Below, piece after piece: positions 11,265 through 45,809 of a DNA stretch of 64,000 bases. Source of the DNA: a virus (Duplodnaviria > Caudoviricetes); IMG/VR virus record IMGVR_UViG_3300017763_003980; one strand, given 5' to 3'. Each line of letters begins with the position of its first letter. Position 1 is the first letter of the stretch. The translations under genes were made by a program, and so were the position numbers. A model generated the notes under the pieces. It had not been told where the DNA came from and made no database searches. It worked only from the letters and a program-made list of their open reading frames with translations.

Positions 11265-11289
11265 TTATATATGTACTTAAAGGTAGATA

Positions 11290-13499: not shown

Positions 13500-14166
13500 T
13501 ATTGTATTCATTTCCTACCAAGAGCCTAATGCAGACGAAAATTACGATAAATTAAAAGAACGTTTTCCGTTAGCAAAACGTGTGCATGGTGTTAAAGGAA
13601 TACATCAAGCACATATTGCTGCCGCAAAAAAATGTTTTACTAAAATGTTTTGGATTGTTGACGGTGATGCACATATAGTTGATGAATTTAAGTTTGATTA
13701 TGAAGTTCCTAAACACCAATTAGATCATGTGCATGTGTGGAGAGCAAGAAACGCAGTCAATGCCCTTGTTTACGGATATGGAGGTGTTAAACTATTTCCT
13801 AAGCAGCTAACTATTGATATGGATCTATCAAAACCTGATATGACTACTAGTATCAGTGGAAAATTTAAAGCAGTACAAGAATTAGCAAACGTAACTGCAT
13901 TTAACACAGATCCATTTAATACTTGGAAAGGTGCTTTTAGAGAATGTGTAAAGTTAAGTAGTAAAGTTATCGATAGACAAAAAGATTTAGAAACAGATAA
14001 ACGTCTAAATACTTGGTGTACTAGAGGAAAAACTAATCCGTTTGGAGAATATTCTATACGTGGTGCAATAGAAGGCAAAGCATACGGTGAAAAATACCGT
14101 GATTCACCGCAAGAGCTGCGTAGAATAAATGATTTCGATTGGTTACAGGACAAGTTTAATGATTGA
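13492..14166 (+). CDS. GT-A fold (GT2-like) glycosyltransferase
   Basis: YDIVFISYQEPNA, RVHGVKG, WIVDGD, YGYGGVK; paralog of 3525..4448. Confidence 0.65.
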   Translation: MYDIVFISYQEPNADENYDKLKERFPLAKRVHGVKGIHQAHIAAAKKCFTKMFWIVDGDAHIVDEFKFDYEVPKHQLDHVHVWRARNAVNALVYGYGGVKLFPKQLTIDMDLSKPDMTTSISGKFKAVQELANVTAFNTDPFNTWKGAFRECVKLSSKVIDRQKDLETDKRLNTWCTRGKTNPFGEYSIRGAIEGKAYGEKYRDSPQELRRINDFDWLQDKFND

Positions 14167-14887
14167 ATGGCAAGATGATAATGATGTGTTTGGAAGAATG
14201 TATGTACTTACAGACGAACCTTTATTTAAAAATTTAAGAAATGCAGTTAATCAATTTGATGCAGATTTTTCAGATGCACTTAGTTGGGGACAACTAAAAA
14301 GCAAACGTTGGTTGGTAGAATCTTTAATAGAATCTAATAAATTAGTACTTGCTAGTACTAACGGTCAGCAGAGTTTACAATTAGACACAATATTTTTGTG
14401 CGGTGGCTGGTACGGTACACTTGCAGATATGCTTTTTAAGACAGGATTAAAGATAGATAAAATAAGAAGTTTTGATATTGATCCTACATGTGCTCCTATT
14501 GCCGAATGTGTTAATAAACAGTATGTAATAAATGAATGGCAATTTAAAGCTGCTACTTTAGATATACATGATTTAAGATACAGTAGATTTGATTATGTAA
14601 CACACAAGGCAGATGGTACAGAAATTAAATTAATTGACGATGCCAATTGTGTAATTAATACAAGTTGCGAGCATATATTAGATTTTGAGAGATGGTATGA
14701 TCATATACCTCACGGCATGTTAGTTATAGTACAAAGTAATGACTATTTTGAAGTACCTGATCATGTAAATTGTAGCGAAACACTTGAAGATTTTAAAAAA
14801 CAAACACCAATGCGTAGAGAATTATTTTCAGGTAAATTAGAATTATCAAGTTATAATAGATTTATGCGTATTGGATTTAAAGAATAG
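14159..14887 (+). CDS. class I SAM-dependent methyltransferase-like protein
   Basis: LCGGWYG motif I, IRSFDIDP, INTSCEH; start moved to ATG 14159 (overlaps previous stop). Confidence 0.7.
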   Translation: MIEWQDDNDVFGRMYVLTDEPLFKNLRNAVNQFDADFSDALSWGQLKSKRWLVESLIESNKLVLASTNGQQSLQLDTIFLCGGWYGTLADMLFKTGLKIDKIRSFDIDPTCAPIAECVNKQYVINEWQFKAATLDIHDLRYSRFDYVTHKADGTEIKLIDDANCVINTSCEHILDFERWYDHIPHGMLVIVQSNDYFEVPDHVNCSETLEDFKKQTPMRRELFSGKLELSSYNRFMRIGFKE

Positions 14888-16158
14888 TGTACGAAGAAAC
14901 AAAAAAAGAATTAGATAAGATTAGTCCTAGCTTTTGTATAGCAAAGTGGGCTAGAACTAATGTAAGAACCTATGAAGGCACATCATACAGTTGCCATCAC
15001 TGTAGACCTATAGTTACTCCCAAAGAAGATGTAGTAGCTAATTATGAAACTTTAACAAATAATGAAAAAGTAAAACAATACAGGCAACAGATGCTAAACG
15101 GTGAACGGCCAGAAGAGTGTGGCTACTGTTGGACTAGAGAAGATCAGGGCTTTACAAGTGATAGAATTATTAAAAGTCGTAAATTTATGAAATACCATCA
15201 TATAAACCCATATGATATTACTAAAGACTTAACACATGCTCCTGTACATTTAGATATTGCGTTTGATAGGACATGTAATTTTAAATGTTCATATTGTGGT
15301 CCTCAAAATAGCAGCCTTTGGGCAGAAGAAATAGCACAATATGGAGACATAAAAGGAGTACCTGCGTTTGCTGACAGAGAATCAATACCTAACAGAGAAG
15401 TAAATCCTTATAATGATGCTTTTTGGGAGTGGTGGGAAGCAGGTCTAAAGTATAGTTTACAACATTTAACTATTACCGGTGGCGAACCGCTATTGTCAAA
15501 AGAATTTTGGAAAGTATTAGATAAAGTTGAACAAGATGATTTAGGTATGACAGTTATGGTTAACACAAATCTATGCCCACCTGATAAAATATTCAACAAG
15601 TTTGTAAATAGAATACAAAACTGGGATCCTTTAAGGATGCGTATTTCCACAAGTATAGAATCAATGAGTAAAAAAGCTGAATACAGCAGGTTCGGATTAG
15701 ATTATAATAAGTTTATGAGTAATATGCATAGGATATTAACTGAAACTGATCTAAAAGTTGAGGTTAATCTTACAAATAATGCATTAAGTTTTACTTCGCT
15801 TACTGATCTAGTTCAAGAACTAACTAAATTTAAAATTAAATACGGAGAAAAAAGAGTAACAATGCATAGTAACGATGTTACTTATCCTCAACATTTAAAT
15901 TTACGCATACTTCCTAAAGAACTTAGAAATGCTGAAGTAATCAAGTTTAAAAGATTTATGAAAATTAATAAGAAATATTTTTCCGAATCAGAGAAATATA
16001 AGTTTATGCGTACATTAAAACTTGCACTAGTTGAATATGATGATCTACAAAAACACCGCGATGAATTTTTGATATTTATTGAACAATATGACAAAAGAAG
16101 AAATTTAAATTTTGATCAAACGTTTCCAGAAATAGCAAAATTTAAGGATAAGATATGA
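14887..16158 (+). CDS. radical SAM protein with N-terminal twitch/SPASM-like Cys set
   Basis: CNFKCSYC, TGGEP; N-terminal C...CHHC...CGYCW; GTG start. Confidence 0.85.
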   Translation: MYEETKKELDKISPSFCIAKWARTNVRTYEGTSYSCHHCRPIVTPKEDVVANYETLTNNEKVKQYRQQMLNGERPEECGYCWTREDQGFTSDRIIKSRKFMKYHHINPYDITKDLTHAPVHLDIAFDRTCNFKCSYCGPQNSSLWAEEIAQYGDIKGVPAFADRESIPNREVNPYNDAFWEWWEAGLKYSLQHLTITGGEPLLSKEFWKVLDKVEQDDLGMTVMVNTNLCPPDKIFNKFVNRIQNWDPLRMRISTSIESMSKKAEYSRFGLDYNKFMSNMHRILTETDLKVEVNLTNNALSFTSLTDLVQELTKFKIKYGEKRVTMHSNDVTYPQHLNLRILPKELRNAEVIKFKRFMKINKKYFSESEKYKFMRTLKLALVEYDDLQKHRDEFLIFIEQYDKRRNLNFDQTFPEIAKFKDKI

Positions 16159-17393
16159 ATAAAACTCCTTGGTGCATGGATCCGTTCATTCAAATGGCCC
16201 ATACTGCTGATGGGTTTTTTAGAGTATGTTGTATTGGAGAAGTACATAGAGAACGCACTGATCTTAATACTAAAGAAATGACTCCTTTGGAATACTGGAA
16301 CAGCGATGTTAGTAAACAGATTCGATCGGATATGTTAAAGCCTATAGAAGAATTTAGCGACATCACAAAATATGCATGTAGTCAATGTTTAAAAAATAAT
16401 AGAGATGGTGTACGCAGTCGCAGACAAACGGAAAATGTAAGGTACCAAGATAATAAAAAAGCAAAAATAAATGTTATAAAACATTTAAAAAATATTGATT
16501 ACACGTATGATGACTTACTATATGTAAATTTTAAAGTATTAGGAAATATTTGTAATTTAAAATGCGTAATGTGTAGTGCAAATGCAAGTAGTAAAATTGC
16601 TGCAGAAGCAAAACAGCATTACGGATTTCCTCGAGGATGGAGTGCAGGCGACAAAGCAGAACTAGAACCGTTTACTCCTGATACACGTAATGACTATTTT
16701 ACAGAATTACAAAAAATAATTGACAGTATTCCAAAATTTAATTTAGTCGGCGGCGAAAATTTAATACATCCTGATTTCCCTCGTCTGTTCCAAATGTTTA
16801 TAGACAGCCCAAATATCAGTAATATTGATATGCTAATTATTACCAATGGAACAATAGTACCGGATATTGTGCAAGACAATGCACATTTATTTAAAAGTAT
16901 GACTATACTAATAAGTATGGACGGTGTTTATGAAAGAGGTTCATATGTGCGTTCAGGACTCAATTGGAAAAAGTTTGATACTAACGTAAGAAAATTTGCT
17001 AGTAATCCTCATGTATTTTTAAGACTAGTGCCAGCAATACAAATGCTTAATGCAGGATATGTTAAAGAAATGCATGAATGGATAGAGTCTGTAGGCCTAG
17101 ATCCTAAGATGTCGATAGATTGGAATAATGTTGTTACATATCCTGAAACTTTACGTGCAATTAATTTACCTAAAGAAATAAAACAAGAATATATGCGTAA
17201 GATGATAGGACCTGATATAACACACCCGTCAATACGAGTAGTTTTCGATATACTAAAACAGCCTCAATATAGTCACAAAGAGTTCCTTGAGGGACTTAAA
17301 TACTTACGTAAATTAGATAAAATTCGGAACACAAATCTACTAGAACATTTTCCTGAGTTTGAGCAGTATATAGGAGATATAGATGATAACTAA
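16155..17393 (+). CDS. radical SAM protein with N-terminal twitch/SPASM-like Cys set
   Basis: CNLKCVMC, VGGEN; N-terminal C...CC...CSQC. Confidence 0.85.
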   Translation: MNKTPWCMDPFIQMAHTADGFFRVCCIGEVHRERTDLNTKEMTPLEYWNSDVSKQIRSDMLKPIEEFSDITKYACSQCLKNNRDGVRSRRQTENVRYQDNKKAKINVIKHLKNIDYTYDDLLYVNFKVLGNICNLKCVMCSANASSKIAAEAKQHYGFPRGWSAGDKAELEPFTPDTRNDYFTELQKIIDSIPKFNLVGGENLIHPDFPRLFQMFIDSPNISNIDMLIITNGTIVPDIVQDNAHLFKSMTILISMDGVYERGSYVRSGLNWKKFDTNVRKFASNPHVFLRLVPAIQMLNAGYVKEMHEWIESVGLDPKMSIDWNNVVTYPETLRAINLPKEIKQEYMRKMIGPDITHPSIRVVFDILKQPQYSHKEFLEGLKYLRKLDKIRNTNLLEHFPEFEQYIGDIDDN

Positions 17394-18105
17394 CGAAGAA
17401 AAAGCAGAACTAGCAAAGTTCAGCTATTTAGAAGCTTTTAGAGATGGTACATTACCTGCCCCTAAAATAATGGATTTAGTTTGCGAAAGTCAGTTAGCTG
17501 CACTAGGTGATTTTGTACCATTAAAAGTAAAGATAAAATTAGGTGAATTTAGAAACGAAATAAAAAAATATGACGGTAAATGGGTGCCGTATCTGCCGCG
17601 AGAAGGTGAATTAAATGATAGACAAGGACTTAACTATATAGGGTTAGAAGGAGACACACCTTTTGATAGCATTAGTCTTCCTGAAGCAAGAAAACGCACA
17701 GGGAAAAAATTAGTAGAAATTGACTTTAGTACTAAAACACAACTATATAATGATTTACCAAGTCTGAAAGCAATTACAGATGTTTGGCCAGACCCTTGTC
17801 GTTGTACACTAGTAAAAGTTAATAAAGGTGGCTGGTTTCCTTATCATCGTGATAGTGTGTTATTAAATAGAAGAACATTTAGAATAATTGCATTTCTTAC
17901 AAATACTGGCGCAGAGTGTTATCAATGGGAGCATGACTATACAATGCGTACAATTGAAGAAGGAAGATGCTATTATGTAAACACACAATTAGCTCATAGA
18001 ACCCATAGTTATGTACCCGATAGCATACACCTAGTAATGAATATACCAAAAACACTTGAAAATGTTTTTAGGGTAATGGACATACTAAAGCACGGCGAAA
18101 CATAA
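17383..18105 (+). CDS. 2OG-Fe(II) oxygenase (AspH-like)
   Basis: FPYHRD (HxD) ... NTQLAHRT distal His, IHLVMN. Confidence 0.65.
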   Translation: MITNEEKAELAKFSYLEAFRDGTLPAPKIMDLVCESQLAALGDFVPLKVKIKLGEFRNEIKKYDGKWVPYLPREGELNDRQGLNYIGLEGDTPFDSISLPEARKRTGKKLVEIDFSTKTQLYNDLPSLKAITDVWPDPCRCTLVKVNKGGWFPYHRDSVLLNRRTFRIIAFLTNTGAECYQWEHDYTMRTIEEGRCYYVNTQLAHRTHSYVPDSIHLVMNIPKTLENVFRVMDILKHGET

Positions 18106-18842
18106 TGGGCATAGTTACTAAAACTATTCGACGTGATCAACACATACATAAACTAAAAGAAAGAATGTCACCTGCTTATAGTATAGAAAATTTTTTATCT
18201 ACACAGGAGTTAAATGATCTATATAGTTTGTGGAACAGCAAACAGGAATGTGCTATTACAAAAAACACTGGTCCTATTACAGTAAATTTAAAAGACATTC
18301 GCGATTCTGATATTATTAAGTGTGTAATAAAAAAAATACAAAAACAAATTGGTGATGAATGTAGATGTTGGGGAGGACAATTTTTCTATACTAATGTTCC
18401 TTATGTAATACATAACGACGATGATTCACACACATTTCCAGATGCATTTAAAGCTGTTAGTATGCCTATTAAAGTGTGGCCTGAAGATAAAGAAAGTTCA
18501 TTAACTGAATTAGTATGTTTTGAACAAGCATATTTTGAAGGACCGTCAAAGTTTTTTAATGGTGGTCCTGAGCAAGAAACATATTATAATGTTGCTGTAT
18601 ATGATTATGAATATGTGCATAACTTAAAAGAACAATCAATACCAAAGATAATAACAGATAAATTGTTGCCACATCTAAAAACAGAATGGTTACAAGGATT
18701 AAGTATAGATAATAAATTTAAATGGCAATTAGGCAACGCAATAGTTTTTGACTCTCTTAAATTACATGCAAGTACAGATTTTAGAAAAAAAGGTATAGAA
18801 GGAAAGTTAGGATTAAGTTTATTTTTTGAGAAGGCACTATGA
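18105..18842 (+). CDS. 2OG-Fe(II) oxygenase-like protein
   Basis: YVIHND (HxD) ... FDSLKLHAS. Confidence 0.6.
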   Translation: MGIVTKTIRRDQHIHKLKERMSPAYSIENFLSTQELNDLYSLWNSKQECAITKNTGPITVNLKDIRDSDIIKCVIKKIQKQIGDECRCWGGQFFYTNVPYVIHNDDDSHTFPDAFKAVSMPIKVWPEDKESSLTELVCFEQAYFEGPSKFFNGGPEQETYYNVAVYDYEYVHNLKEQSIPKIITDKLLPHLKTEWLQGLSIDNKFKWQLGNAIVFDSLKLHASTDFRKKGIEGKLGLSLFFEKAL

Positions 18843-19402
18843 GATTAGAAACTTTTACACAAAAAACTATAAATGATAGACAACACGATGCACTAGTTAG
18901 TTTATCTCAGTATGCAAGTACACTTAATGATCCTGCTGCAAAAAATTATGCTGTAGATGATTGGGAAGAAAGAACAGACACTTTATTATATGCTTTTTAC
19001 AAGAAAAAAAGATTTGATATATTTAATATACTATATCATAAAGACACACCTATAGCAATGGCAGGAGCATATGTTTTTAATCATCAACCAATAATAGGAG
19101 TAAGAACATTTACGCATCCAGACTTTAGAGGCGGCGGACATTGGTGCCAAGCAAGATACATACTTCCTGCACAAATAGATTACTATGATGAACAAAATTA
19201 TAAAACAGTTTGGCTTACATTTAACGACTACAATACACGGCTAGTAAATTTTATCAAACGCATAAGTGAAGGCCGATCATCTCACCTAGGAGGCGGTCCG
19301 AAAAAGATATATCAAAATCTTACTTGGCACGATGAACCAAAAACAGTACAGTATACAAAGCAAATAATTGCTGAATTAAAAATATCAGATTATAAAAAAT
19401 GA
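18839..19402 (+). CDS. GNAT-like acyltransferase
   Basis: IGVRTFTHPDFRGGG resembles the acetyl-CoA-binding motif A. Confidence 0.5.
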   Translation: MRLETFTQKTINDRQHDALVSLSQYASTLNDPAAKNYAVDDWEERTDTLLYAFYKKKRFDIFNILYHKDTPIAMAGAYVFNHQPIIGVRTFTHPDFRGGGHWCQARYILPAQIDYYDEQNYKTVWLTFNDYNTRLVNFIKRISEGRSSHLGGGPKKIYQNLTWHDEPKTVQYTKQIIAELKISDYKK

Positions 19403-19881
19403 AATTAATTAAAATTAAAAAAATTTCAGGAAGTCGAGAAAGAAGAGTATACAAATATAAAACACATTATAGAAAACATTGGAACTTCGCTAGTAATAAG
19501 TTTGCAACAAGATTGCCAATAAAAGAGCATGTAGAAATGGTAAACAAACTAGTTCCTGGATATATTTTAGGATATAAAGTTTTAAAGAAATGTATGTGGA
19601 TAGACTACAATATAGTTCCAGGTATTCCTGCATCGGACATGACTGTGTTTCCAAGAACTCCAGAATTTATTACAAAAGTATATAACTTTTGTATTGACAA
19701 TATTAGAGAAACAGCACCATATGCTCACTATGATTGGTCATTAGATAACATAATTATTGATGGTGATAATTTACAATTAATAGATTGGGATCTTTGTGCA
19801 ATTTACACAGACCAAGAAATTAAAGAAAGATTTGAATCACAGTATATTGGTCAGCTGTACTCCAAACTTCACAGTTCTTAA
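19399..19881 (+). CDS. small APH/protein-kinase-like phosphotransferase
   Basis: HYDWSLDN catalytic loop and LIDWD metal-binding motif. Confidence 0.65.
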   Translation: MKLIKIKKISGSRERRVYKYKTHYRKHWNFASNKFATRLPIKEHVEMVNKLVPGYILGYKVLKKCMWIDYNIVPGIPASDMTVFPRTPEFITKVYNFCIDNIRETAPYAHYDWSLDNIIIDGDNLQLIDWDLCAIYTDQEIKERFESQYIGQLYSKLHSS

Positions 19882-19899
19882 AACTTAAAAGATTGATTG

Positions 19900-19906
19900 A
19901 TAAATA
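19900..19906 (+). promoter_or_regulatory. late-promoter-like box ATAAATA, 5 nt before ATG 19912
   Basis: Resembles T4 late TATAAATA; no SD before the ATG. Confidence 0.55.
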
Positions 19907-19911
19907 TATAT

Positions 19912-20682
19912 ATGATAAAAGATATATTTAGATCTAACACACAGCTTTTTCCGGTAGGGCAATTAGTAAGTACAATCACGTTGCTTTATATGCTATATCT
20001 TACAGCACTAGGCTCGGTTGCTCCACAATGGTGGTTAGCAAGTCTTGCGATGTATTTTTGCACAGGTTGTCTAGGAATTACTATTACATATCATAGATAT
20101 CTAACACATAGAAGCTTTAAGTATCGTTACAAATGGATGGAATATGTATTTTCGTTTTTTGGAGCGATGGGAGGTACAGGTAGTTCAATAGGTTGGGTAG
20201 CTGTGCATAATGAACATCATAAGCACACAGATAAAGATGGTGATCCTCATTCACCACACTTAGGTTTTTGGAATGTTATAATTCCAAGATATACATTTGA
20301 TATGAATAAATTTGCTGTAAGACACTTAGTAACTAACAAGTTTCATTTAGCACTACATAATTATTACTACTTAATAATGCTAGCTTGGATAGGACTACTA
20401 TATATAATAGGTGGCGCTAACTTATCTATATTTGTTGGTGTTATTCCGGTCGCAATTCAAATATGGGCAAGTGTAATGAGTAACTATGGTAATCATACTT
20501 GGGGATATAGGAATTTTGAGACTAAAGAAGAAAGCAAAAATACATGGTGGCTTGCAATATTAACTTTCGGAGAAGGATGGCACAATAATCATCATGCTAA
20601 ACCTGGTAGATGGAACTTTTCTCATAAATGGTGGGAAATAGATATGAGTGCTTGGGTTATACGATTATTAAAAACATCTTAA
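19912..20682 (+). CDS. membrane fatty-acid desaturase (delta-9 acyl-lipid/acyl-CoA type)
   Basis: His boxes HRYLTH, HNEHH, HNNHH; GDPHSP; GEGWHNNHH; hydrophobic segments. Confidence 0.9.
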   Translation: MIKDIFRSNTQLFPVGQLVSTITLLYMLYLTALGSVAPQWWLASLAMYFCTGCLGITITYHRYLTHRSFKYRYKWMEYVFSFFGAMGGTGSSIGWVAVHNEHHKHTDKDGDPHSPHLGFWNVIIPRYTFDMNKFAVRHLVTNKFHLALHNYYYLIMLAWIGLLYIIGGANLSIFVGVIPVAIQIWASVMSNYGNHTWGYRNFETKEESKNTWWLAILTFGEGWHNNHHAKPGRWNFSHKWWEIDMSAWVIRLLKTS

Positions 20683-20688
20683 TTAATA

Positions 20689-22152
20689 ATGTATCATGTT
20701 ATTATCTTTACAGGTATACTTCAAAGTCCCAGTTCTATCTTTAAACCCCTCGGCGCATATCGTATACGCACAGAACTAGAATCTCAAGGTTATAATGTAA
20801 AAGTTATAGACCATTATCATAATTTAACCGAAGAACATATACAAAAAGCATTTGAAAAATATGTTGGAAAAGAAACATTATGGGTCGGTTTTAGCACTAC
20901 CTTTCTAAATACAACAACTTTACTTGCAGACAGATCTCATTTTTATATGAGATTAAGAAAAAAATATAATGTTCCTATAGTTATTGGCGGCGCAAAAGCT
21001 ATGGTAGAATTTTTGCCATGGGCTGACATTTTCATTACTGGATATGCTGATGATGCAGTTGTATCTGTAACTAATCATTTAGCACAAAAAGGTAGCACTC
21101 CTAAATGGAAAGATTACAAAGGTAAAAAAATTATTGACAGCAATCATGAATATGATAGAAAAGATTTATCTAACATAGGAGTAGTTTGGAAAGCAGAAGA
21201 TGGTATAAGTCCAACTCAAGCACTACCTATGGAAATAGCTAGAGGTTGTATTTTTAATTGTGCGTTTTGTAATTTTCCGTTGAATAATAAATCTAAATTT
21301 GATTATGTTCGAGTAAAAGAAGATATGACAAACGAGTTTTTACGTAACTACGAACAATTCGGTACTACTTACTATTGTTTTATGGATGATACATATAATG
21401 ATAGCATGAAAAAATTAGAATTAATGCATGATGTAATAACTAATTTACCTTTCAAAATTAAGTTCGATACATATATTAAACCAGAATTATTAGCAACATG
21501 GCCCGACCAAGCTGATCTTTTAGTAGAAACTGGACTAGTAGGAGCAAGCTTAGGACTTGAAACACTTAACAGAGATGCAAGACAAGCTATCCAAAAGGGC
21601 AAGAATATAGAAAAAGTATTAGAATCTATTGATAAACTTAAAGAAAAGAATAACGGACAAGTAAAAATACAATGTAATATGATTGTAGGCCTTCCGCATG
21701 AATCAGCTCAAAGTATTTGGAAATCTCACGAACAAATTATTAATAATAAAAGCATTGATTGGTGGAACTGGTATCCATTACAAATACATTCAAAAGATCA
21801 TCATGAATATCATTCTCCTATCGATAGAAATCCAGAAAAGTTTGGCTACAAAATAAGTCAAACAAAATTAATAAAAAATAATAGGGTAGACACTAACTAT
21901 TGGCTTACAGACTGGAATAATGAACATATGAATTCTGACATGGCAGGAATGTTATCTGTGAAGTTGCGAAGTATGGCTCAACAACACGTTAAAGTAGCAG
22001 GATGGAACTGTAGTAGTTTTGAAAGTCTAGGATTAGACTTAGATGAACATTACAGTACGCATGAAGGATTAGTGCAAAATATGCCTATTGAAGATATGAA
22101 AATAAAAAAACAAAAAATAGTAGACGACTACATTCACAATGTAATAATGTAA
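20689..22152 (+). CDS. B12-binding radical SAM protein (class B methyltransferase-like)
   Basis: PLGAYRI...GYNVKVID N-terminal domain, IVIGG, EIARGCIFNCAFC, FMDDT, LGLET, IVGLPHE. Confidence 0.8.
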   Translation: MYHVIIFTGILQSPSSIFKPLGAYRIRTELESQGYNVKVIDHYHNLTEEHIQKAFEKYVGKETLWVGFSTTFLNTTTLLADRSHFYMRLRKKYNVPIVIGGAKAMVEFLPWADIFITGYADDAVVSVTNHLAQKGSTPKWKDYKGKKIIDSNHEYDRKDLSNIGVVWKAEDGISPTQALPMEIARGCIFNCAFCNFPLNNKSKFDYVRVKEDMTNEFLRNYEQFGTTYYCFMDDTYNDSMKKLELMHDVITNLPFKIKFDTYIKPELLATWPDQADLLVETGLVGASLGLETLNRDARQAIQKGKNIEKVLESIDKLKEKNNGQVKIQCNMIVGLPHESAQSIWKSHEQIINNKSIDWWNWYPLQIHSKDHHEYHSPIDRNPEKFGYKISQTKLIKNNRVDTNYWLTDWNNEHMNSDMAGMLSVKLRSMAQQHVKVAGWNCSSFESLGLDLDEHYSTHEGLVQNMPIEDMKIKKQKIVDDYIHNVIM

Positions 22153-23443: not shown

Positions 23444-24118
23444 TTATTTCTTTCTACCAAATATTCTTATTTGTACTCTAGGTGAAAATATTTCTGTTGT
23501 ACAGTGCGGCAAACTATCGTCGAAGTGCCAGCATTTATATTTTGATTCGTCTACTTCAAACATTTCATTGCCTACTCTATACTGTAAGTGGCCGCCTCCG
23601 TCAGAAACATTTAGCGTGATAGCAACACCGCCATTTTTAAAGTATAACAAATTATCTCTATGTCTAGCATCGGCATGTACTATACCTTTGCTAGGTGGAG
23701 TTTGGCCTACAAGCCTAACACAACTAATGTATTCTAAATTAAATTTATTAACAATGTCAATCAAGCTTTGTGGCGCATCATCTTTCCAAGTCCATGCAGT
23801 ATCATATACATGCCATATAGGACTTCTTCCTCTAAATGTTTCCAAGTAACATGTATTTGAAGTTTCTGGTATACCCGGTATATGTGTGAAGTTATAGTTT
23901 ACAAATGTTTTATATTTGTTTTCTACTAAGTTACGATTGTCATCATAATGAGTTACATCATCGTACTTTTCAAAATAACCATCTTTGTCATAATTACTTC
24001 GTCCGTCAGTGTAAATAACTGTAGCAAGAAAGCTTTCGTCAAACATATTTGTTGACATTAGATCGTTATAAAGGCTTTGTTGATCAAAGTCAACATCTAT
24101 AGGTTCAAAAGCATTCAT
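23444..24118 (-). CDS. 2OG-Fe(II) oxygenase-like protein
   Basis: IVHAD ... FDDSLPHC, RVQIR; start moved to ATG 24118. Confidence 0.6.
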   Translation of the reverse strand: MNAFEPIDVDFDQQSLYNDLMSTNMFDESFLATVIYTDGRSNYDKDGYFEKYDDVTHYDDNRNLVENKYKTFVNYNFTHIPGIPETSNTCYLETFRGRSPIWHVYDTAWTWKDDAPQSLIDIVNKFNLEYISCVRLVGQTPPSKGIVHADARHRDNLLYFKNGGVAITLNVSDGGGHLQYRVGNEMFEVDESKYKCWHFDDSLPHCTTEIFSPRVQIRIFGRKK

Positions 24119-24123
24119 AATAA

Positions 24124-24130
24124 TACTTAT
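24124..24130 (-). promoter_or_regulatory. late-promoter-like box ATAAGTA, 5 nt before ATG 24118
   Basis: Same spacing as the other ATAAATA-N5-ATG sites. Confidence 0.45.
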
Positions 24131-24142
24131 CTGGAAGTCTTT

Positions 24143-25018
24143 ATGTCTATAAACTATCTGACACACAATAATTATTTTACTACATCTGGTCACGGAAAAG
24201 ACTGGACAGTACATTTAAAATCAGTTACACAAACGCCTAATTCTTGGTTTACTGAAAGTATAAGGTCGGCACAACTAATTAAAGAATCTGCAGATAGTCC
24301 TTTAGTGCTATTATTCAGCGGTGGACTAGATAGTGAATACATGCTTAATATTTTTAGACATGCTGGAATAGATTTTAAAGTTGCAATTATTAGCTATGGT
24401 GATTATAACATACACGACAATAAGCATGCATTCGAATATTGCAAAGCACACGGTATTGAACCTATAGTTATAGATATAGATATGGATTGGTTTATAAACA
24501 GCGGGAAAATAATTGAAATAGCTAATTTAGCTAAATGCTGTGCTTACCAAATTCCTAGTATTATGCACGGAATATCACAAATAGACGGCACAGTTATAAT
24601 GGCCAACGGAGAACCATATGTAAAAAACTTTGATGGAGATTGGCGCTGGGAAGAAACTGAACGTGTAAACAGCTATATGAATTGGTTTTCTTTGTTGCAT
24701 CTTGAAGGCACTCCAGATTTTCTAAGATACACTCCAGAAATGACAGTAAGTTTTTTAATGGAACCTAGAGTAATACAGCTAGTAAATAATGAACATCCTG
24801 GCAAGCTTAGTACTCGTACAAGTAAACATATGATATATACCCAGCACTTAAAAATGTCTAAACGAGCAAAATTTACAGGTTGGGAAAAACTAGAAAAACT
24901 TCCAATAATGCAACATGAATTATTTAAAGAATTTGATTTATTGAAAGAAAAGTATAATGGAGTTTTTGAACTAGGTTATAACGACCTTGTTGATGAGCTG
25001 TTAAAGTACGGAACCTGA
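24143..25018 (+). CDS. PP-loop (adenine nucleotide alpha hydrolase) ATPase-like protein
   Basis: LLFSGGLDSE PP-loop; start moved to ATG 24143. Confidence 0.65.
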   Translation: MSINYLTHNNYFTTSGHGKDWTVHLKSVTQTPNSWFTESIRSAQLIKESADSPLVLLFSGGLDSEYMLNIFRHAGIDFKVAIISYGDYNIHDNKHAFEYCKAHGIEPIVIDIDMDWFINSGKIIEIANLAKCCAYQIPSIMHGISQIDGTVIMANGEPYVKNFDGDWRWEETERVNSYMNWFSLLHLEGTPDFLRYTPEMTVSFLMEPRVIQLVNNEHPGKLSTRTSKHMIYTQHLKMSKRAKFTGWEKLEKLPIMQHELFKEFDLLKEKYNGVFELGYNDLVDELLKYGT

Positions 25019-25414
25019 GACACCAGATCCATTTTCGTAGTTAGGATCTAATTCTGTTTTCCTTGCATGTTCTACATACGTTTCATCTCGTTCAGCAGCA
25101 AAAGTAGCAAATTCATCAAACGTTATATCTTCTACAATTGTGTCTACGTGCCCTGTTGCTGATTCTAGATAAGCACGATGAGGAGCAAAATTACTTACTG
25201 ATGTTTCCGAGTCTAAAATAAACACACAATTAATATTTTCGCCTTCGTGTTCATAATTTCTAAACCAAATGTCACCGTTTTCAGTCATAGTTTTTAGGCC
25301 ATTAAACATATTGGCATATGCTGTTTTGTCATTATCTAATTCATCAATAATTTCAGTAACAAATTGTGTAATACGTCTTCCATTATGCGGATATCTAATA
25401 GTGACTTTTTTCAT
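25001..25414 (-). CDS. hypothetical protein
   Basis: 137 aa ORF with AAGGAG RBS. Confidence 0.7.
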   Translation of the reverse strand: MKKVTIRYPHNGRRITQFVTEIIDELDNDKTAYANMFNGLKTMTENGDIWFRNYEHEGENINCVFILDSETSVSNFAPHRAYLESATGHVDTIVEDITFDEFATFAAERDETYVEHARKTELDPNYENGSGVSGSVL

Positions 25415-25432
25415 GTTTACTCCTTATGCTAG

Positions 25433-25449
25433 TATTTATCAGTTAAATA
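25433..25449. promoter_or_regulatory. back-to-back late-promoter-like boxes
   Basis: ATAAATA on minus (25433-25439) and TTAAATA on plus (25443-25449, 5 nt before ATG 25455). Confidence 0.5.
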
Positions 25450-25454
25450 TATTT

Positions 25455-26153
25455 ATGTTAAACAAATTAGGATATGAAATATTAAGTAATGCATTCGATC
25501 CAACTGCATTACTTTCTGCGAGTAATGATGTGCTAGAAAAAAGAACTCAATCGTTTATATACGAAAATGATGGAAGTATAAGAAGTGTATTCGCACCACA
25601 TTGGTATAACAAGGATGTGAAAGATTTTGTATACGATAATCCAGCAATAGCTAATGTAAAAGAAGTATTAGTTGATGATATTTATGTACATCAAGTACAC
25701 TTTAATTATAAGCTAGCAGGGGTCGGTGGCGAGTATGCATGGCACAGTGATTATACATATTGGCATCATTATGACGGTATGCCAAATCCAGATGCTATTA
25801 GTGTATTGTATCTTTTAGATGATATGACTAGTATAAATGGGCCACTAGAAGTATTAGAAGGTAGTCATCTGGATCCTGTTGAAGAACCACCAAAAGGCAA
25901 CTGGACTATAAAGCATAATAGCACAGAGATACCTAATAATACACCGTCTAAGAACGCATATAAGCGTCATACAGTAACAGGCAAAGCTGGGGATATCATA
26001 TTGATGCATGCAAATTTAAAGCATGCTAGCACGGCAAATAAGAGCCATAAAAATAGAAAAGTGCTATTTGTATGCTATAATACGGTAAAAAACGCCACGA
26101 CAGGCGCCGTAAGACCTGATTATATTACACTAAAAGATTTTACGCCTGTTTAA
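25455..26153 (+). CDS. phytanoyl-CoA dioxygenase/EctD-like 2OG-Fe(II) hydroxylase
   Basis: YAWHSDYTYWHHYDGMP, LDD..SINGPLEVLEGSH, LKHAS..N, RKV; start ATG 25455. Confidence 0.8.
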   Translation: MLNKLGYEILSNAFDPTALLSASNDVLEKRTQSFIYENDGSIRSVFAPHWYNKDVKDFVYDNPAIANVKEVLVDDIYVHQVHFNYKLAGVGGEYAWHSDYTYWHHYDGMPNPDAISVLYLLDDMTSINGPLEVLEGSHLDPVEEPPKGNWTIKHNSTEIPNNTPSKNAYKRHTVTGKAGDIILMHANLKHASTANKSHKNRKVLFVCYNTVKNATTGAVRPDYITLKDFTPV

Positions 26154-27285
26154 CTACGTTGATGTGTGCTAGTACGTTTTTCCACTTTAACTCGGCATCT
26201 AAGAGCCTTTTATCTGTAGTTATAGCGTAACCATTTAATCCGACTAGCATATCCAAACGTCTAAGATATTGTTGTGAATTAGGCATGGATAGTTCATTAT
26301 ATTCAGCACCTTCCTTCATGCTTATATTGTATTTTCCTTTTTCAAGATTGAAGTGTCTGAATACTACAGCTTTGTCTAGTTGTACTCTAAGGTCTGATTT
26401 GCATGTAATACTATCCATTACAATTCTATTGTAATCACAGTCTGCTGAATATTTTATTATAGTTTGTCCACTAGTGCTTAACCTTGGACTAAAATCTACT
26501 AGATAAGGTACTTCATCTCTAACAACAAAGTCAGCCATAAAAGGACCATTATCGTATCCTATGCTTTCGCACATTATTCTGCAATATTCTTTTATATCTG
26601 ATTGTACTGGTGTGCTAGATTTACTAGGCCATGTGAATCCTGTTTCTGCTCTATATGGAAGATCACTTATTTCAATATCATATATACAGTCTAAAATAAA
26701 TTTCCCATTTACTATTCTGCCCGATACACTTACTGTTGGTCCTTCTATATATTCTTGGAATATATAACCTGCATCTAAATCATTATAGTGTATGTCATCT
26801 AAAAAATAACGGTATTGACTCCAATTTTCAAGAACCTTTATACCGATGCCGCCTGTACCGTTTGCAGGTTTTGCTACTACAGGGAATGTTTTACGTAAAG
26901 ATGTGTGAGTCATTGGTACTGGTATACCAATATTGTAAGCATGTGCAGTATAATTTTCTTTGTTTGATAGTATATTACATTGTTCTTTTGTGATACCGAC
27001 TAGGTCGTGTATGTAAGGAAGCAACATGTCGTTATATAAGGGAAATATATAATCTATATTATTTTCATTTATAATTTTACGTAACTGATTAGCAAGGTCT
27101 GATCTATCTTTAGCTTTAATAGCATAGTGTTCTATACCGTCAGGAACACTAGGTATCATTTTATCTAGCAATGGAAATTGAGAGTTAGTATTTGCTTGCC
27201 AAGTACATAGTTTGTAATTTGTTAGTTCTTGTAGGGTATACCTTAAATTATTGCTTTGGTAATTTATAATTACTTTAGGCTCCAT
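26140..27285 (-). CDS. ATP-grasp ligase
   Basis: VVAKPANGTGGIGI, IFQEYIEG, FMADF, LVDFSPRLS. Confidence 0.8.
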   Translation of the reverse strand: MEPKVIINYQSNNLRYTLQELTNYKLCTWQANTNSQFPLLDKMIPSVPDGIEHYAIKAKDRSDLANQLRKIINENNIDYIFPLYNDMLLPYIHDLVGITKEQCNILSNKENYTAHAYNIGIPVPMTHTSLRKTFPVVAKPANGTGGIGIKVLENWSQYRYFLDDIHYNDLDAGYIFQEYIEGPTVSVSGRIVNGKFILDCIYDIEISDLPYRAETGFTWPSKSSTPVQSDIKEYCRIMCESIGYDNGPFMADFVVRDEVPYLVDFSPRLSTSGQTIIKYSADCDYNRIVMDSITCKSDLRVQLDKAVVFRHFNLEKGKYNISMKEGAEYNELSMPNSQQYLRRLDMLVGLNGYAITTDKRLLDAELKWKNVLAHINVVKQA

Positions 27286-27895
27286 AAGTAATTTTATCCC
27301 TCATAATAGTATTGGTATACTTTATTTTCATAGTAATAAATCTTATAGTAGAATCATATGGTAAGGGTTTGTTGCCTAAGCAATAGTCATACAACTTATT
27401 ACCAGTTAAATGGCCAGCTTTGACAAAAGCAGCATCTGTAACATTATATTTTTCTTCATATATTGAAGCATACTTCTTACCATACTTTGAAACATCTAAG
27501 CCTTGTACATTATGTGTATTTCTTTCTTTGTTTGCTCTTTCAATGTCTTCACTGCGTACCCAAAAAAATCCCCATTTGCCTCGAGACTCACATTCATTTA
27601 ATTGGAATTGCATTACTTTCAAAATGTTTCTAAAATTAGCAAAATGGCTTTGGTCTTTTCTTGCCAGTAATGTATCACATAACACCCACGGCATATTTGG
27701 TAAATCTTCGCCTGCAACAATTGCTTGTATTTCTTTATTTTTTAATACAGCATAAATGTGTCTATTAGGTTCTATAAATTTTATATTTTGCCAATGAAAA
27801 TCGTTCTGTAAATTATGTGATTTAATTTGGTCGTTTATAAAATTAAAGAATAAATCTTTATGATCAGGCGTTAATTTGATACATTCATCAATCAT
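27275..27895 (-). CDS. hypothetical protein (possibly GNAT-like)
   Basis: 206 aa ORF coupled between panD and the ATP-grasp gene; HIYAV...IQAIVAG pattern only weakly GNAT-like. Confidence 0.55.
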   Translation of the reverse strand: MIDECIKLTPDHKDLFFNFINDQIKSHNLQNDFHWQNIKFIEPNRHIYAVLKNKEIQAIVAGEDLPNMPWVLCDTLLARKDQSHFANFRNILKVMQFQLNECESRGKWGFFWVRSEDIERANKERNTHNVQGLDVSKYGKKYASIYEEKYNVTDAAFVKAGHLTGNKLYDYCLGNKPLPYDSTIRFITMKIKYTNTIMRDKITYGA

Positions 27896-28232
27896 AGTTT
27901 ATAGTCTTTTCAATAGTATTGTACTTATTTGTGTATATTACTGTAGCTCCATCAAATTGAAAAGAAGTAGTATAACTAAGGACTACACATGGATCTCCTA
28001 TTTCGCCTAATCTTGCACCACCGCCGTTTAGTTCAAACACACCTTTGTTTCCTGGAATTACATATGTAGTCCAACGGTCACCGGTATTCATATTTACAAT
28101 ATCAACTTTTTGATACGGATCAAGATCAACTTTAGACATTAAATCACGACAGATAGTTACACTACCATCGTAGTCTAACGATTTATCAGTAACATGAATA
28201 TTTTGAATTTTAGATTGGATATACTCTCTCAT
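27888..28232 (-). CDS. panD: aspartate 1-decarboxylase (pyruvoyl-dependent)
   Basis: SKIQNIHVTDKSLDYDG|SVTI self-cleavage site, NMNTGDRWTTYVI, LNGGGAR, GD..VVLSY. Confidence 0.92.
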   Translation of the reverse strand: MREYIQSKIQNIHVTDKSLDYDGSVTICRDLMSKVDLDPYQKVDIVNMNTGDRWTTYVIPGNKGVFELNGGGARLGEIGDPCVVLSYTTSFQFDGATVIYTNKYNTIEKTINYD

Positions 28233-28238
28233 AGTACT

Positions 28239-28267
28239 ATTGTACTATAAAAAATTTGTGTTGTCAA
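28239..28267 (-). promoter_or_regulatory. sigma70-type promoter of the panD operon (leaderless)
   Basis: TTGACA-N17-TACAAT; -10 ends 6 nt before the panD ATG. Confidence 0.7.
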
Positions 28268-28271
28268 CCTA

Positions 28272-29801
28272 TTAGTTTAAGTCTACCCAAGCTGAGCCAG
28301 TATAGCCTTGGAATTTAGTGCCAGTACTATTAAAGATTATCATACCTGCAGCTGGTGTTGTTACAGCCGCTGACCTTGCAGTATCGTCAGCAACTACTTT
28401 AAGCTGGATTGCTCCACTAAATGATGCTACAGAATCTGTTTGTGCAATTTGTAGCACTACAGTTTGATCGCCATTTGCTGCTGAATTGTATAATTCAATA
28501 TTTGTTGGTATTCTGTTTGCCTCTGGAGCTGCCGAAGCAAGGAATCTAATACCTCCTGAGGCCCTATAAGCTGTACCGTTATATCCAGCTGCTGCATATG
28601 CTCCGAGTTGATCACCCGATTGTACTGCTGTTGGTGCAGCCTTTGTACCTCTAGATCTTAATGCACCATATGTACTTCCGTAGCCTGCATCAGAAGCATG
28701 AAATGTTCTTATTGTTGTTGTACCTTGTGTGACAGCGTCATTATAAACACCAAGTGTTCTGTTGTTGCCTGTGTCTGTAACACCGCCAACTTGTGAACTT
28801 CTGCCTAATACTATCGATCCAGCAGTATTTTCAGTAGTGATTGTAAAAACATTACTTTCAGTATTTTGCTCTAAGAACATTGTATTCTTACTAGTAGCTG
28901 AAGTTAGTTTAATATTGCCAGCTAGTACGCCTAATTGTGTACTAACTTGTCCAGTAATCTTATTGTTAATACCATCTACAAGTAATGAACTATCTTCACC
29001 AAACACACTACCGCTCATAGTACCAAGTAATTGACCATTTACAGTACCGTTAAATACTGCATTAAAACTATCTAATATCTTAGACGAGTCATCAGTTGAG
29101 CTGAATATATCACCTTGTATATCACCTAACCATTGGCCTGTAGCTTTATCAAATACCTTCCTTAAACCAAGATCAAAAATGTCACCTTGGAAATTACCAA
29201 TAATATCACCGGTAAACAATTTAGTAGTTGGATTATATGCTGTTGTTCCATCACCGGCTTCGATGGTCATATTTTTAACAGTGCTAGTACTTGTATCAAC
29301 TAGCTGGGTGCCATCAAGTTTGTATAAATCTCCGCCATATACATCGCCCATAAGTCTATTATTATCATGATCAACTAATAAACTACTATTGTTTCCTACA
29401 ATACTTAATCTAATCTGTGAGTCTTTTAATTGTTCAACTTTAAAGTTACTTCCATCATGTATCAGGATCTGACCCCAACCCGGGCCACCATCTGGATATA
29501 TTACATCGTCATGATTATTTAAATTGCCTAGTGTTGCACCTGCAGGGTTTACTGCTGTCCAATAGTTGTCGCTTGAAGACCATGCTAAAACTTGCCCATC
29601 ACTAATGCTACCCAGTGTAACATCATTTAAATCATTTAGTGATGATGCGCCACCGCCGCTTCCTTGTACTACAACACCGCCAGCAGTTGTACCATCACCA
29701 ACATATAACGACTTTGTATCAGTTGTGTAGATAAGTTCGCCCGCTGCTGGTGTAATAAGCTGACGCTCAGCGTTGGTACCTCGTCTTAGCCTTAATGCCA
29801 T
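28272..29801 (-). CDS. tail fibre / virion structural protein with Mtd_N-like N-terminus
   Basis: MALRLRRGT..ER....PAAGELIYTTDTKSLYVGDG, LNDLNDV repeats, G/T/S-rich, C-terminal GMIIFN...FQGY..SAWVDL. Confidence 0.7.
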   Translation of the reverse strand: MALRLRRGTNAERQLITPAAGELIYTTDTKSLYVGDGTTAGGVVVQGSGGGASSLNDLNDVTLGSISDGQVLAWSSSDNYWTAVNPAGATLGNLNNHDDVIYPDGGPGWGQILIHDGSNFKVEQLKDSQIRLSIVGNNSSLLVDHDNNRLMGDVYGGDLYKLDGTQLVDTSTSTVKNMTIEAGDGTTAYNPTTKLFTGDIIGNFQGDIFDLGLRKVFDKATGQWLGDIQGDIFSSTDDSSKILDSFNAVFNGTVNGQLLGTMSGSVFGEDSSLLVDGINNKITGQVSTQLGVLAGNIKLTSATSKNTMFLEQNTESNVFTITTENTAGSIVLGRSSQVGGVTDTGNNRTLGVYNDAVTQGTTTIRTFHASDAGYGSTYGALRSRGTKAAPTAVQSGDQLGAYAAAGYNGTAYRASGGIRFLASAAPEANRIPTNIELYNSAANGDQTVVLQIAQTDSVASFSGAIQLKVVADDTARSAAVTTPAAGMIIFNSTGTKFQGYTGSAWVDLN

Positions 29802-29833
29802 GTTTATAACTCCTGAAACTTATTTCTTATTAG

Positions 29834-29841
29834 TATTTATA
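29834..29841 (-). promoter_or_regulatory. T4-type late promoter TATAAATA
   Basis: Exact T4 late consensus upstream of the tail-fibre gene (AGGAG RBS). Confidence 0.65.
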
Positions 29842-29866
29842 CCTTTTTAAAGATAAACTATATTAA

Positions 29867-30181
29867 CTAAGATCTCTTCATAAAGGTTTTTGTATGAGAT
29901 TTTACATCATTTACAAGTGAGGGAGTATCTAACTTAAATTCTACTGTTTTAATTACATCATTAAATTCATTAAAAAACAAGTTTAGTGTTTCTTCTAAAT
30001 CAATTTCAGCAGATTCTTTCTTTTTCTTATCTTCGTCTAAATCTATTTGCCATTCTTTGCCGTCTTTAAAGACTACTTGTACTTTGGATATGTATTTGAT
30101 GGGTACTGCTTTGATTTCGATATGCTCAAAAACTTCAGGCCAGTAGTCGACAACTTCTGTAGGGAGTTTATTTTTAGACAC
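29867..30181 (-). CDS. hypothetical protein
   Basis: 104 aa ORF, GTG start, coupled to the upstream gene. Confidence 0.7.
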   Translation of the reverse strand: MSKNKLPTEVVDYWPEVFEHIEIKAVPIKYISKVQVVFKDGKEWQIDLDEDKKKKESAEIDLEETLNLFFNEFNDVIKTVEFKLDTPSLVNDVKSHTKTFMKRS

Positions 30182-30788
30182 TCTCTACGGTCTTTTTAGC
30201 AGTCTTCTTCTTTGTAGGAACTAGCTCTTCTGCCTGTTCTCTTAGAGCCTTTGCTTCTTTAAAAAGAGCATCTGCTTGTGACCTATATTGAGCTGCTAAA
30301 TCAGCATCACTTAAAACACCATCATTGCTTGCACCTGCTGCAACCTGTTCAGCACTCAAACTTGGATCTGTAGTTTCTGTAACAACTTCTGGTCTGTTTC
30401 CAGCTTCGTCAGCTAATGCTAAATCAGCAACAGTAACACCTTTTTGTTCTGCAATAACTTCGTTAAGTTCAGCAAGGCTTATTGATGTATTATTGTTAGG
30501 AGTCATTTCCACATCAGCTGATGCAACTTTCATCATTTTGCCTGTTGCATGGAATCGTGCTAGCATATTAGAACCGTCTGGTAGTTGTGTTCTTGCCATT
30601 ACAGTTGCAAATTCATCTGCTTCTTGTCCTGCTGATCCTTCAACAGTTTTAATAAGTGTGTCATGCTCTTCTGCCATTAAACTACTAGTGTCAACAATAA
30701 CACTTTGATCAGGCTCTCCTGGTACTACCCTATAAGCTACAACAACTCCTCTTTGATTTTTGGCCATTCGACCTACATGTTTTAACAT
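30174..30788 (-). CDS. hypothetical protein
   Basis: 204 aa ORF with RBS. Confidence 0.8.
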   Translation of the reverse strand: MLKHVGRMAKNQRGVVVAYRVVPGEPDQSVIVDTSSLMAEEHDTLIKTVEGSAGQEADEFATVMARTQLPDGSNMLARFHATGKMMKVASADVEMTPNNNTSISLAELNEVIAEQKGVTVADLALADEAGNRPEVVTETTDPSLSAEQVAAGASNDGVLSDADLAAQYRSQADALFKEAKALREQAEELVPTKKKTAKKTVESV

Positions 30789-45780: not shown

Positions 45781-45809
45781 AGTATACTTTCATTTAATAG
45801 GTTTGTCAA
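45781..45809 (-). promoter_or_regulatory. sigma70-type promoter (leaderless) of the QueD-like gene
   Basis: TTGACA-N17-TATACT; -10 ends 6 nt before ATG 45774. Confidence 0.7.

Follow-up and report, generated by a model that had tools for sequence, protein, structure and literature searches.

In the bacterial pantothenate pathway (panB, panC, panD and PanZ/PanM), beta-alanine is supplied by PanD, a pyruvoyl-dependent aspartate 1-decarboxylase, and in the animal carnosine pathway a dedicated decarboxylase feeds beta-alanine to an ATP-grasp ligase (PMC7367687). Bacterial L-amino-acid ligases (BL00235, BacD/YwfE, RizA and DdaF) form an acyl-phosphate and then an amide between small carboxylates and amines. 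Phages encode natural-product-like enzyme mixes in the thymidine hypermodification clusters of M6, ViI and PaMx11 (PMC8989533), and a review of jumbo phages covers other ATP-grasp or secondary-metabolite-like clusters, not an operon that joins PanD to a ligase (PMC7824862). Here, we describe such an operon in a 64,000-nucleotide stretch of Caudoviricetes DNA (IMG/VR virus record IMGVR_UViG_3300017763_003980; hereafter the window), in which PanD, a GNAT-fold protein, and an ATP-grasp carboxylate-amine ligase are encoded by three overlapping open reading frames (ORFs) on the minus strand (26140-28232). The reading that we prefer, with about even confidence, is that the operon produces beta-alanine for an ATP-dependent amide ligation, a small-molecule product being favored. 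The parts are known kinds of enzyme; the union of a precursor-supplying decarboxylase and an amino-acid ligase in a phage is apparently undescribed. Our literature searches found no description of a phage PanD with a ligase, or of beta-alanine ligation or beta-alanine DNA adducts in phages, in keeping with the original prediction, made from the sequence alone, that no phage system of this form was known.

The first gene of the operon (27888-28232, minus strand; 114 aa) encodes PanD. The protein matches Pfam PF02261 (Asp_decarbox) with an E value of 3e-28 and 98.5 bits against a cutoff of 25, covering model positions 3-113 of 115. When it was aligned to the solved PanDs 3oug and 2c45, the Gly23|Ser24 self-processing site was in place, and K8, Y21, R53, T56, Y57 and N69 corresponded to Lys9, Tyr22, Arg54, Thr57, Tyr58 and Asn72 of the solved enzymes. 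The catalytic residues and the Gly-Ser site are invariant across 13 homologs. The Pfam match and these residues bear out the original claim of an intact PanD with a G|S site, and the phage protein is homologous to PanD of the bacterial pantothenate pathway, sharing all of its catalytic residues. Because its score falls short of the NCBIfam TIGR00223 equivalog cutoff (80.3 versus 106 bits), however, the sequence places this PanD in a divergent clade and not among housekeeping orthologs. The signature of the clade is LNGGGARLGEIGD, which is found in phages and prophages beside ligases. The chemistry assigned to PanD is predicted from the conserved catalytic residues; all later steps of the pathway we infer.

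The last gene (26140-27285, minus strand; 381 aa) encodes the ATP-grasp ligase, an assignment already made in the original prediction and upheld here by the match to Pfam ATP-grasp_3 (PF02655; E value of 1e-12, 48.8 bits, cutoff 23.2) and by the predicted fold. The AlphaFold 2 (AF2) model has a mean predicted local distance difference test score (pLDDT) of 87 and matches more than 500 ATP-grasp structures in the PDB, and K139, K150, Q177, D252, D264 and R268 are invariant in 16 homologs. A profile built from these 16 homologs found BL00235 (3vot) as its top match in the PDB, with an E value of 2.3e-10. Likewise, a Foldseek comparison of the model with the PDB returned BL00235 (3vot; template modeling [TM] score of 0.79), BacD/YwfE (0.76), and RizA. 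The nearest Swiss-Prot models were alanine-anticapsin ligase, an ATP-grasp::argininosuccinate-lyase fusion, and the dapdiamide synthase DdaF, while biotin carboxylases and PurT ranked below the L-amino-acid ligases with lower TM scores.

Based on the predicted structure, the phage ATP-grasp protein is closest to the L-amino-acid ligases, a resemblance at 13-16% identity for which orthology is unproven. The resemblance points to the joining of small carboxylates and amines, the same implied chemistry, and does not by itself identify the substrates. The match to the L-amino-acid ligases spans the whole 381-aa protein (TM score of 0.69-0.79), although at the sequence level it lies mainly in the ATP-binding domain and the substrate pocket is not comparable. 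In addition, those ligases are bacterial and, unlike the phage enzyme, are not paired with PanD or a GNAT-fold protein. The original prediction had looked instead to carnosine synthase, an analogy that gives way here to the bacterial L-amino-acid ligases as the nearest solved relatives; carnosine synthase was absent among the top 30 Swiss-Prot and top 50 PDB structural matches, which does not imply its exclusion. The animal pathway shares the logic of a dedicated decarboxylase feeding an ATP-grasp ligase, but its decarboxylase depends on pyridoxal phosphate (PLP) whereas the phage enzyme is pyruvoyl-dependent, and it has neither a GNAT partner nor oxygenase tailoring. A homolog of the phage ligase also occurs on a 95-kb viral contig (L017:8969-12511), where it lies between a TctC-like solute-binding protein and two phosphatases, before an Mtd_N fiber gene. 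A graspetide or microviridin-type ribosomally synthesized and post-translationally modified peptide, which would also combine ATP-grasp and GNAT proteins, was rejected, as the ligase is Lal-like rather than a RimK-type macrocyclase and the tightly packed operon leaves no room for a precursor-peptide ORF.

The middle gene (27275-27895, minus strand) encodes a 206-aa protein that had been left as an unknown in the original prediction. None of the three proteins matched PHROGs, and this one has no Pfam or NCBIfam match either, including none to the Pfam Acetyltransf families; a PDB sequence search returned chance-level matches only. An AF2 model built with eight homologs (pLDDT of 69, moderate confidence) shows the GNAT order of elements, beta-alpha-alpha-beta3-alpha-beta-alpha-beta. 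When this model was compared with the PDB, Foldseek found aminoglycoside, ribosomal-protein, and histone acetyltransferases at E values of about 1e-5, and an exhaustive VIA-align search gave Z scores of 10-12.5 to many GNATs over approximately 130 residues. AlphaFold Database clusters agree with the GNAT fold, and the ESM Atlas's own structure of the protein has a TM score of 0.52-0.62 to GNAT clusters. Taken together, the structural models identify the 206-aa protein as having a predicted GNAT fold. By eye, residues 79-84 of the predicted structure read RKDQSH, without the canonical Q/RxxGxG/A loop that binds the pyrophosphate of coenzyme A (CoA). The corresponding loop in homologs is RRDQSH, RRDQGH, KKGLTH or NHKLHG, and the conserved glycine pair is absent from the alignment. 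Because the usual CoA-binding glycine loop is missing, the donor of this protein may not be acetyl-CoA. The family is small and phage-only: at E < 1e-3, a set of 1.84 billion proteins yielded 18 representatives, each about 200 aa long.

Among the structural matches of the 206-aa model is Escherichia coli PanZ (4cry_B, 2k5t; Z score of 11.3, root-mean-square deviation of 2.7 over 127 residues, 13% identity). This match, and the fact that GNAT domains accompany PanD in two unrelated phage architectures, would fit a PanZ/PanM-like maturation or regulatory partner of PanD, with the ligase acting independently. We regard such a role as very unlikely. The PanZ match is tied with those to dozens of other GNATs and so does not single out a PanZ-like function, and in relatives of the operon the GNAT-like gene adjoins the ATP-grasp gene and lies up to five genes from PanD. 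PanD homologs outside Enterobacteria also self-process. A complex prediction for the ATP-grasp and GNAT-like proteins scored 0.00, a result that gives no verdict for or against binding.

We then compared the operon across the marine phage family to which the window belongs. A single-protein scan of IMG/VR gave no confirmed locus, whereas an alignment-based scan did. Ten lineages were compared, with ATP-grasp identities of 41-87%. The gene order in these lineages is AAA, DUF2201, further genes, Mtd_N fiber, PanD, variable genes, GNAT-like, ATP-grasp, a convergent PhyH gene, an acidic 137-aa protein, a PP-loop ATPase, and further genes. The promoter, PanD, and the ATP-grasp gene are retained in all ten. 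Thus, panD and the ATP-grasp gene are linked in every lineage of the family, and their association, which the original prediction had put at stake, is not refuted. The minimal three-gene form is common to the window and lineages L011/L037 and L012/L034; the remaining lineages have one to five extra genes inserted between PanD and the GNAT-like gene. The inserted genes encode one or two TauD-family dioxygenases, a SPASM/MoaA-like radical S-adenosylmethionine (SAM) enzyme, a desaturase-family protein, and orphans of about 190 aa, and some relatives have a sulfotransferase just upstream of PanD. The operon as originally described, with three genes, is the smallest form of one that carries tailoring genes in most relatives. 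Where the GNAT-like gene is present, it always adjoins the ATP-grasp gene, although in L009/L035 it is recognizable by profile only. In the PanD tree, the marine ATP-grasp-linked sequences form one clade (support 99/96).

The three genes of the window are tightly coupled. PanD runs 8 nt into the 206-aa gene, which in turn runs 11 nt into the ATP-grasp gene. Upstream, the 39-nt gap between PanD and the Mtd_N fiber-like gene (28272-29801) contains a sigma-70-type promoter (28239-28267, minus strand), with TTGACA at 28267-28262, a 17-nt spacer, TACAAT at 28244-28239, and 6 nt before the PanD ATG. Coordinates, overlaps, and promoter all agree with the original description of three coupled ORFs behind TTGACA-N17-TACAAT. 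This promoter is the top sigma-70-like match in 24000-30500 (11 of 12 positions), and the window has a single copy of the full pattern where 0.08 would be expected. Promoter-like sites as a whole are no more frequent in the region than chance predicts (29 observed, 30.1 expected), so the weight of the promoter call is carried by conservation: TTGACA-N17-TAyAAT-N6-ATG is kept before PanD in the window's phage and the nine other lineages, while the flanking sequence diverges. Because the -10 element ends 6 nt before the ATG, the motif implies a leaderless or near-leaderless PanD mRNA. A second promoter, TTGACA-N17-TATACT at 45781-45809 (minus strand), also ends near a gene start, 7 nt ahead of the gene starting at 45774; for this reason, the phage may commonly use leaderless starts of the sigma-70 type. 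At the other end of the operon, a terminator-like hairpin with a T-run (26085-26112, minus strand) lies 28 nt past the ATP-grasp stop. The hairpin itself (26112-26095) falls within the 3' end of the convergent PhyH gene and is the sole terminator-like site in 24000-30500.

The fiber gene appears to be under different control. It has a T4-late-type TATAAATA 33 nt upstream of its ATG (29834-29841, minus strand), whereas PanD has a sigma-70-type promoter, of the same type as those found upstream of the phage's nucleotide-metabolism genes. Given these two promoter classes, the operon is probably timed separately from the virion genes, as its own early or middle transcription unit outside the late fiber transcript, and is probably expressed by the host sigma-70 polymerase. 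ATAAATA motifs also occur upstream of the acidic 137-aa gene, at 25433-25456 (minus strand). Contigs from RNA libraries (X15-X18; four libraries from two studies) contain exact matches to segments of PanD, of the GNAT-like gene, and of the ATP-grasp gene. One of them bridges the fiber/PanD junction, representing either read-through or DNA. Since these contigs carry no strand or 5' end and DNA carry-over is possible, they are no proof of transcription.

The position of the operon directly after the Mtd_N fiber-like gene in every lineage raises another use for beta-alanine, namely decoration of the virion or cell surface. Here, an amide bond would fix beta-alanine to a virion protein, such as the upstream fiber, or to a glycan, for example through the carboxylate of a uronic acid that the sugar operon of the phage makes. 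Such a role would be suited by the window's genes for UDP-glucose dehydrogenase, a DegT aminotransferase, and a hexapeptide acyltransferase, and by the Asp/Arg-hydroxylase-like genes present in the islands of relatives. We nevertheless consider decoration improbable: the operon has its own sigma-70-type promoter while the fiber has the late-type motif, the closest structural relatives of the ligase use free amino acids, and the association with the fiber is inherited synteny that is absent from the other contexts in which this PanD occurs.

Scans with PanD alignments extended the survey beyond the marine family and recovered 39 viral and 10 genomic loci with LNGGGARLGEIGD-signature PanDs. The marine ATP-grasp operon is one architecture. 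In a second, PanD stands in a four-gene cassette with a ParB_N protein, a fusion of an ABC-type ATPase to GNAT, and a short CoA-transferase-III-like (CoA_transf_3-like) protein. This cassette usually adjoins the terminase and is found on approximately 30 viral contigs. Probable prophages on contigs assigned to Actinomycetota, Planctomycetota, Acidobacteriota, and Pseudomonadota carry it as well, and it is present as gp85-88 (L019:2347-5112) of Rhodococcus phage Jace, which is in culture. Further loci are L021, L022, L029-L031 and L040-L064. The Jace-type PanDs are the nearest relatives outside the marine clade (42-55% identity). Like the marine operon, the Jace-type cassette couples PanD to a GNAT-fold protein and a possible carboxylate-activating enzyme. 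It differs in that activation would proceed through the CoA-transferase-like protein and the ABC-type ATPase, with no ATP-grasp; in its location by the terminase of small siphovirus-like genomes or prophages; and in its GNAT, which is a recognizable Acetyltransf_1 domain. We found no description of the cassette in the literature.

In a third architecture, PanD is followed by two or three Amidoligase_2 (PF12224) paralogs on viral contigs of 44-133 kb (L065:6001-8949, L067:6001-8928, L068:6001-8923), and these PanDs form a long-branched clade of their own. The fourth is a Schlesneria contig, where PanD precedes a 908-aa ATP-grasp protein, and the fifth is an Uhrbacteria contig, where PanD precedes a protein with a pre-ATP-grasp domain and an M20 peptidase (Uhrbacteria and Schlesneria loci, in this order: L032:6001-8957 and L026:902-4016). 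An amide-forming enzyme stands beside PanD at every locus with enough flank except L027. The contexts require at least four changes on the PanD tree; as the tree is unrooted, we claim no direction for them. It appears that this PanD clade was recruited several times to feed dedicated viral ligases.

What the beta-alanine is for can be approached from these neighbors and from the pantothenate genes. Our Pfam scans covered the window ORFs at 145-34698, among which panB and panC had no match. Neither Pantoate_ligase nor Pantoate_transf was matched in the 2.4-Mb bin that holds the 335-kb phage contig of a relative, and panB/panC were not found at any LNGGGARLGEIGD-signature PanD locus examined. 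The absence of panB/panC in the original prediction thus stands for the ORFs scanned and extends to the relative's bin. Auxiliary metabolism, with PanD boosting host beta-alanine for pantothenate and CoA and the GNAT-like and ATP-grasp proteins unrelated to it, would be the textbook role of the enzyme (PMC3398536). The phage operon departs from that pathway in the missing panB/panC of the relative's bin, the score below the TIGR00223 cutoff, and the membership of PanD in the LNGGGARLGEIGD clade. Phages commonly carry single bottleneck enzymes, which favors the auxiliary role. Still, it seems to us a poor fit and quite unlikely, because PanD comes first after the promoter in a unit of three overlapping genes, because panB and panC had no match in the relative's bin, and because the clade stands beside ligases or acyltransferases at nearly all loci with enough flank, across at least five architectures.

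The repeated pairing with carboxylate-activating ligases and acyltransferases, together with the absent pantothenate genes, leads us to consider it likely that the beta-alanine made by PanDs of this clade goes into a conjugation reaction. The original proposal of a beta-alanyl conjugate in place of CoA synthesis is thereby supported in part, by the amide-forming neighbors in at least four further architectures and by the lack of panB/panC. In the pathway that we envisage, PanD would self-cleave at Gly23|Ser24 to generate its pyruvoyl group and convert host L-aspartate to beta-alanine, as homology and the conserved residues suggest. The ATP-grasp enzyme, of the L-amino-acid-ligase type, would then make an acyl-phosphate from a carboxylate and couple it to an amine. 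Beta-alanine would be one of the two partners, giving a beta-alanyl or an N-(2-carboxyethyl) amide. The translationally coupled GNAT-fold protein may acylate or transfer the ligase product, and the convergent ectoine-hydroxylase-like dioxygenase may tailor it. In relatives, the inserted TauD dioxygenases, radical SAM enzyme, and desaturase, and the sulfotransferase, would serve in tailoring. We favor a tailored beta-alanyl pseudodipeptide as the product. A small molecule is preferred because the structural neighbors of the ligase act on free amino acids, because the variable genes are of natural-product type, and because the promoter class differs from that of the virion genes.

The dioxygenase gene (25455-26153, plus strand) encodes an Fe(II)/2-oxoglutarate-dependent enzyme of the PhyH family that is likely a tailoring hydroxylase. 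It matches Pfam PhyH with an E value of 7.5e-24 and the ectoine-hydroxylase-like model TIGR02408 with an E value of 8.6e-35, at 120 bits against a cutoff of 336. The gene is convergent with the operon, overlaps the 3' end of the ATP-grasp gene by 14 nt, and neighbors it in all lineages. The wider island encodes many radical SAM and sugar-modifying enzymes, along with a desaturase, a GNAT, a PP-loop ATPase, and proteins without an assignment. At 6371-22152 (plus strand), four radical SAM genes, one with a B12-binding domain, alternate with genes for UDP-glucose dehydrogenase, a DegT-type aminotransferase fragment, a hexapeptide acyltransferase, a GNAT, and a desaturase-family protein. This tailoring and glycan island is unusually dense for a phage. 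The PP-loop ATPase (24143-25018, plus strand; 291 aa) has the loop SGGLDS and is conserved in all relatives of the island. An assignment of this protein as QueC is not supported, since its match to QueC, TilS, asparagine synthase, and ArgG-related models is weak and confined to the PP-loop. Elsewhere, at 40266-41844 (minus strand), the window encodes a GTP cyclohydrolase I (FolE; E value of 2e-29 to solved structures) and a QueE-like radical SAM protein with a weak N-terminal match to 7-carboxy-7-deazaguanine synthase.

These genes bear on DNA hypermodification, in which the ATP-grasp/GNAT pair would attach beta-alanine to a modified base in phage DNA. The amide might form on a 7-carboxy-7-deazaguanine or a 5-hydroxymethyl-pyrimidine derivative, with the oxygenases, radical SAM enzymes, and PP-loop ATPase sculpting the adduct. 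It is a serious alternative, because the published thymidine clusters share the enzyme palette, mixing amino-acid attachment, decarboxylases, radical SAM enzymes, GNATs, Fe/2-oxoglutarate dioxygenases, and amidoligases (PMC8989533), and because the window encodes both FolE and a QueE-like protein. Moreover, the Jace-type cassette has PanD, ParB_N, and the ATPase::GNAT fusion by the terminase, a typical location for DNA-modification genes. However, the operon lies 12-20 kb from the deazaguanine genes, the ATP-grasp enzyme is most like ligases of free amino acids, and Pfam and NCBIfam detected no domain for DNA binding or base flipping in any of the three proteins. The adjoining PP-loop ATPase has the SGGxDS loop alone, too little to make it QueC, and we found no literature linking beta-alanine to DNA modification. 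The thymidine clusters are defined by a 5-hydroxymethyldeoxyuridine (5-hmdU) DNA kinase and an aGPT-Pplase amino-acid:DNA transferase, neither of which had a Pfam match among the scanned window ORFs. In those clusters, PLP-dependent decarboxylases act on DNA-bound residues, and neither PanD nor ATP-grasp is reported there (PMC8989533). On balance, attachment to DNA in this phage is unlikely. A broader version, in which the phage-type PanD marks beta-alanylation systems for nucleic acid or virions and beta-alanine ends on a base in phage DNA, seems similarly doubtful. Activation would then be by ATP-grasp in marine jumbo phages, by the CoA-transferase-like protein and ABC-ATPase::GNAT in Jace-type cassettes, or by Amidoligase_2. 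If true, DNA beta-alanylation, for example on the carboxyl of 7-carboxy-7-deazaguanine, would be a new class of hypermodification that protects against host nucleases.

Several observations weigh against the reading that we prefer, an ATP-dependent ligation of beta-alanine with a small molecule as the favored product. PanD scores below the equivalog cutoff, as described above. Lineage L024/L038 keeps the ATP-grasp gene, and no GNAT-like gene was detected in it, while the 28%-identical ATP-grasp homolog on viral contig L017 has no PanD nearby. Because the whole 30-kb region is collinear, a sign of inherited synteny, the marine linkage of PanD and ATP-grasp counts as one evolutionary event. The promoter timing is read from motifs alone, and sequence and fold reveal the substrate of neither the ATP-grasp nor the GNAT-like protein. 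Finally, the enzyme kinds seen here recur in the DNA-hypermodification clusters of phages (PMC8989533), so that the acceptor may be a macromolecule such as DNA, a glycan, or a protein.

The window itself is phage DNA, encoding a T4-type DNA polymerase, an exonuclease, and a CobS/CobT-like AAA and DUF2201 pair. A DNA search of 24000-30000 and a tblastn search with the ATP-grasp protein found no match among GenBank phages; homologs came from marine metagenomes, the longest of their contigs reaching 335 kb, and the window belongs to a marine jumbo-phage family. Two independent assemblies, contigs of 335,231 bp (PBPT01000016.1) and 335,299 bp (ERZ908619), are nearly the same and carry a related locus (L018 and L001). 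One 335-kb contig was filed in a 'Candidatus Neomarinimicrobiota' metagenome-assembled genome, and seems to be an entire jumbo-phage genome that was binned together with bacterial DNA; a further relative was binned as Crocinitomicaceae. Window positions 25900-28400 were present at 98-100% of sampled words in 14 DNA runs from 11 seawater or marine studies. With the RNA-library contigs also taken into account, the phage is common in the sea and possibly active there.

Phage metabolic genes are usually read as single boosters of host pathways; here, an enzyme of a vitamin pathway appears to feed dedicated ligases, in a pairing that ranges from a 335-kb marine phage to the cultured soil actinophage Jace. 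If the product is a small molecule, infecting phages would be producing a tailored beta-alanyl metabolite of their own. An adduct on DNA or the virion would instead represent a new hypermodification chemistry. In either case, the operon offers a testable handle on the functionally obscure oxygenase/radical SAM island of marine jumbo phages, with three small genes, a mass signature of +71.04 Da, and a cultured analog in Jace, whose cassette can be tested directly because the phage is in culture. There is a genuine prospect that the PanD-ligase operon will point to a new metabolite or modification.

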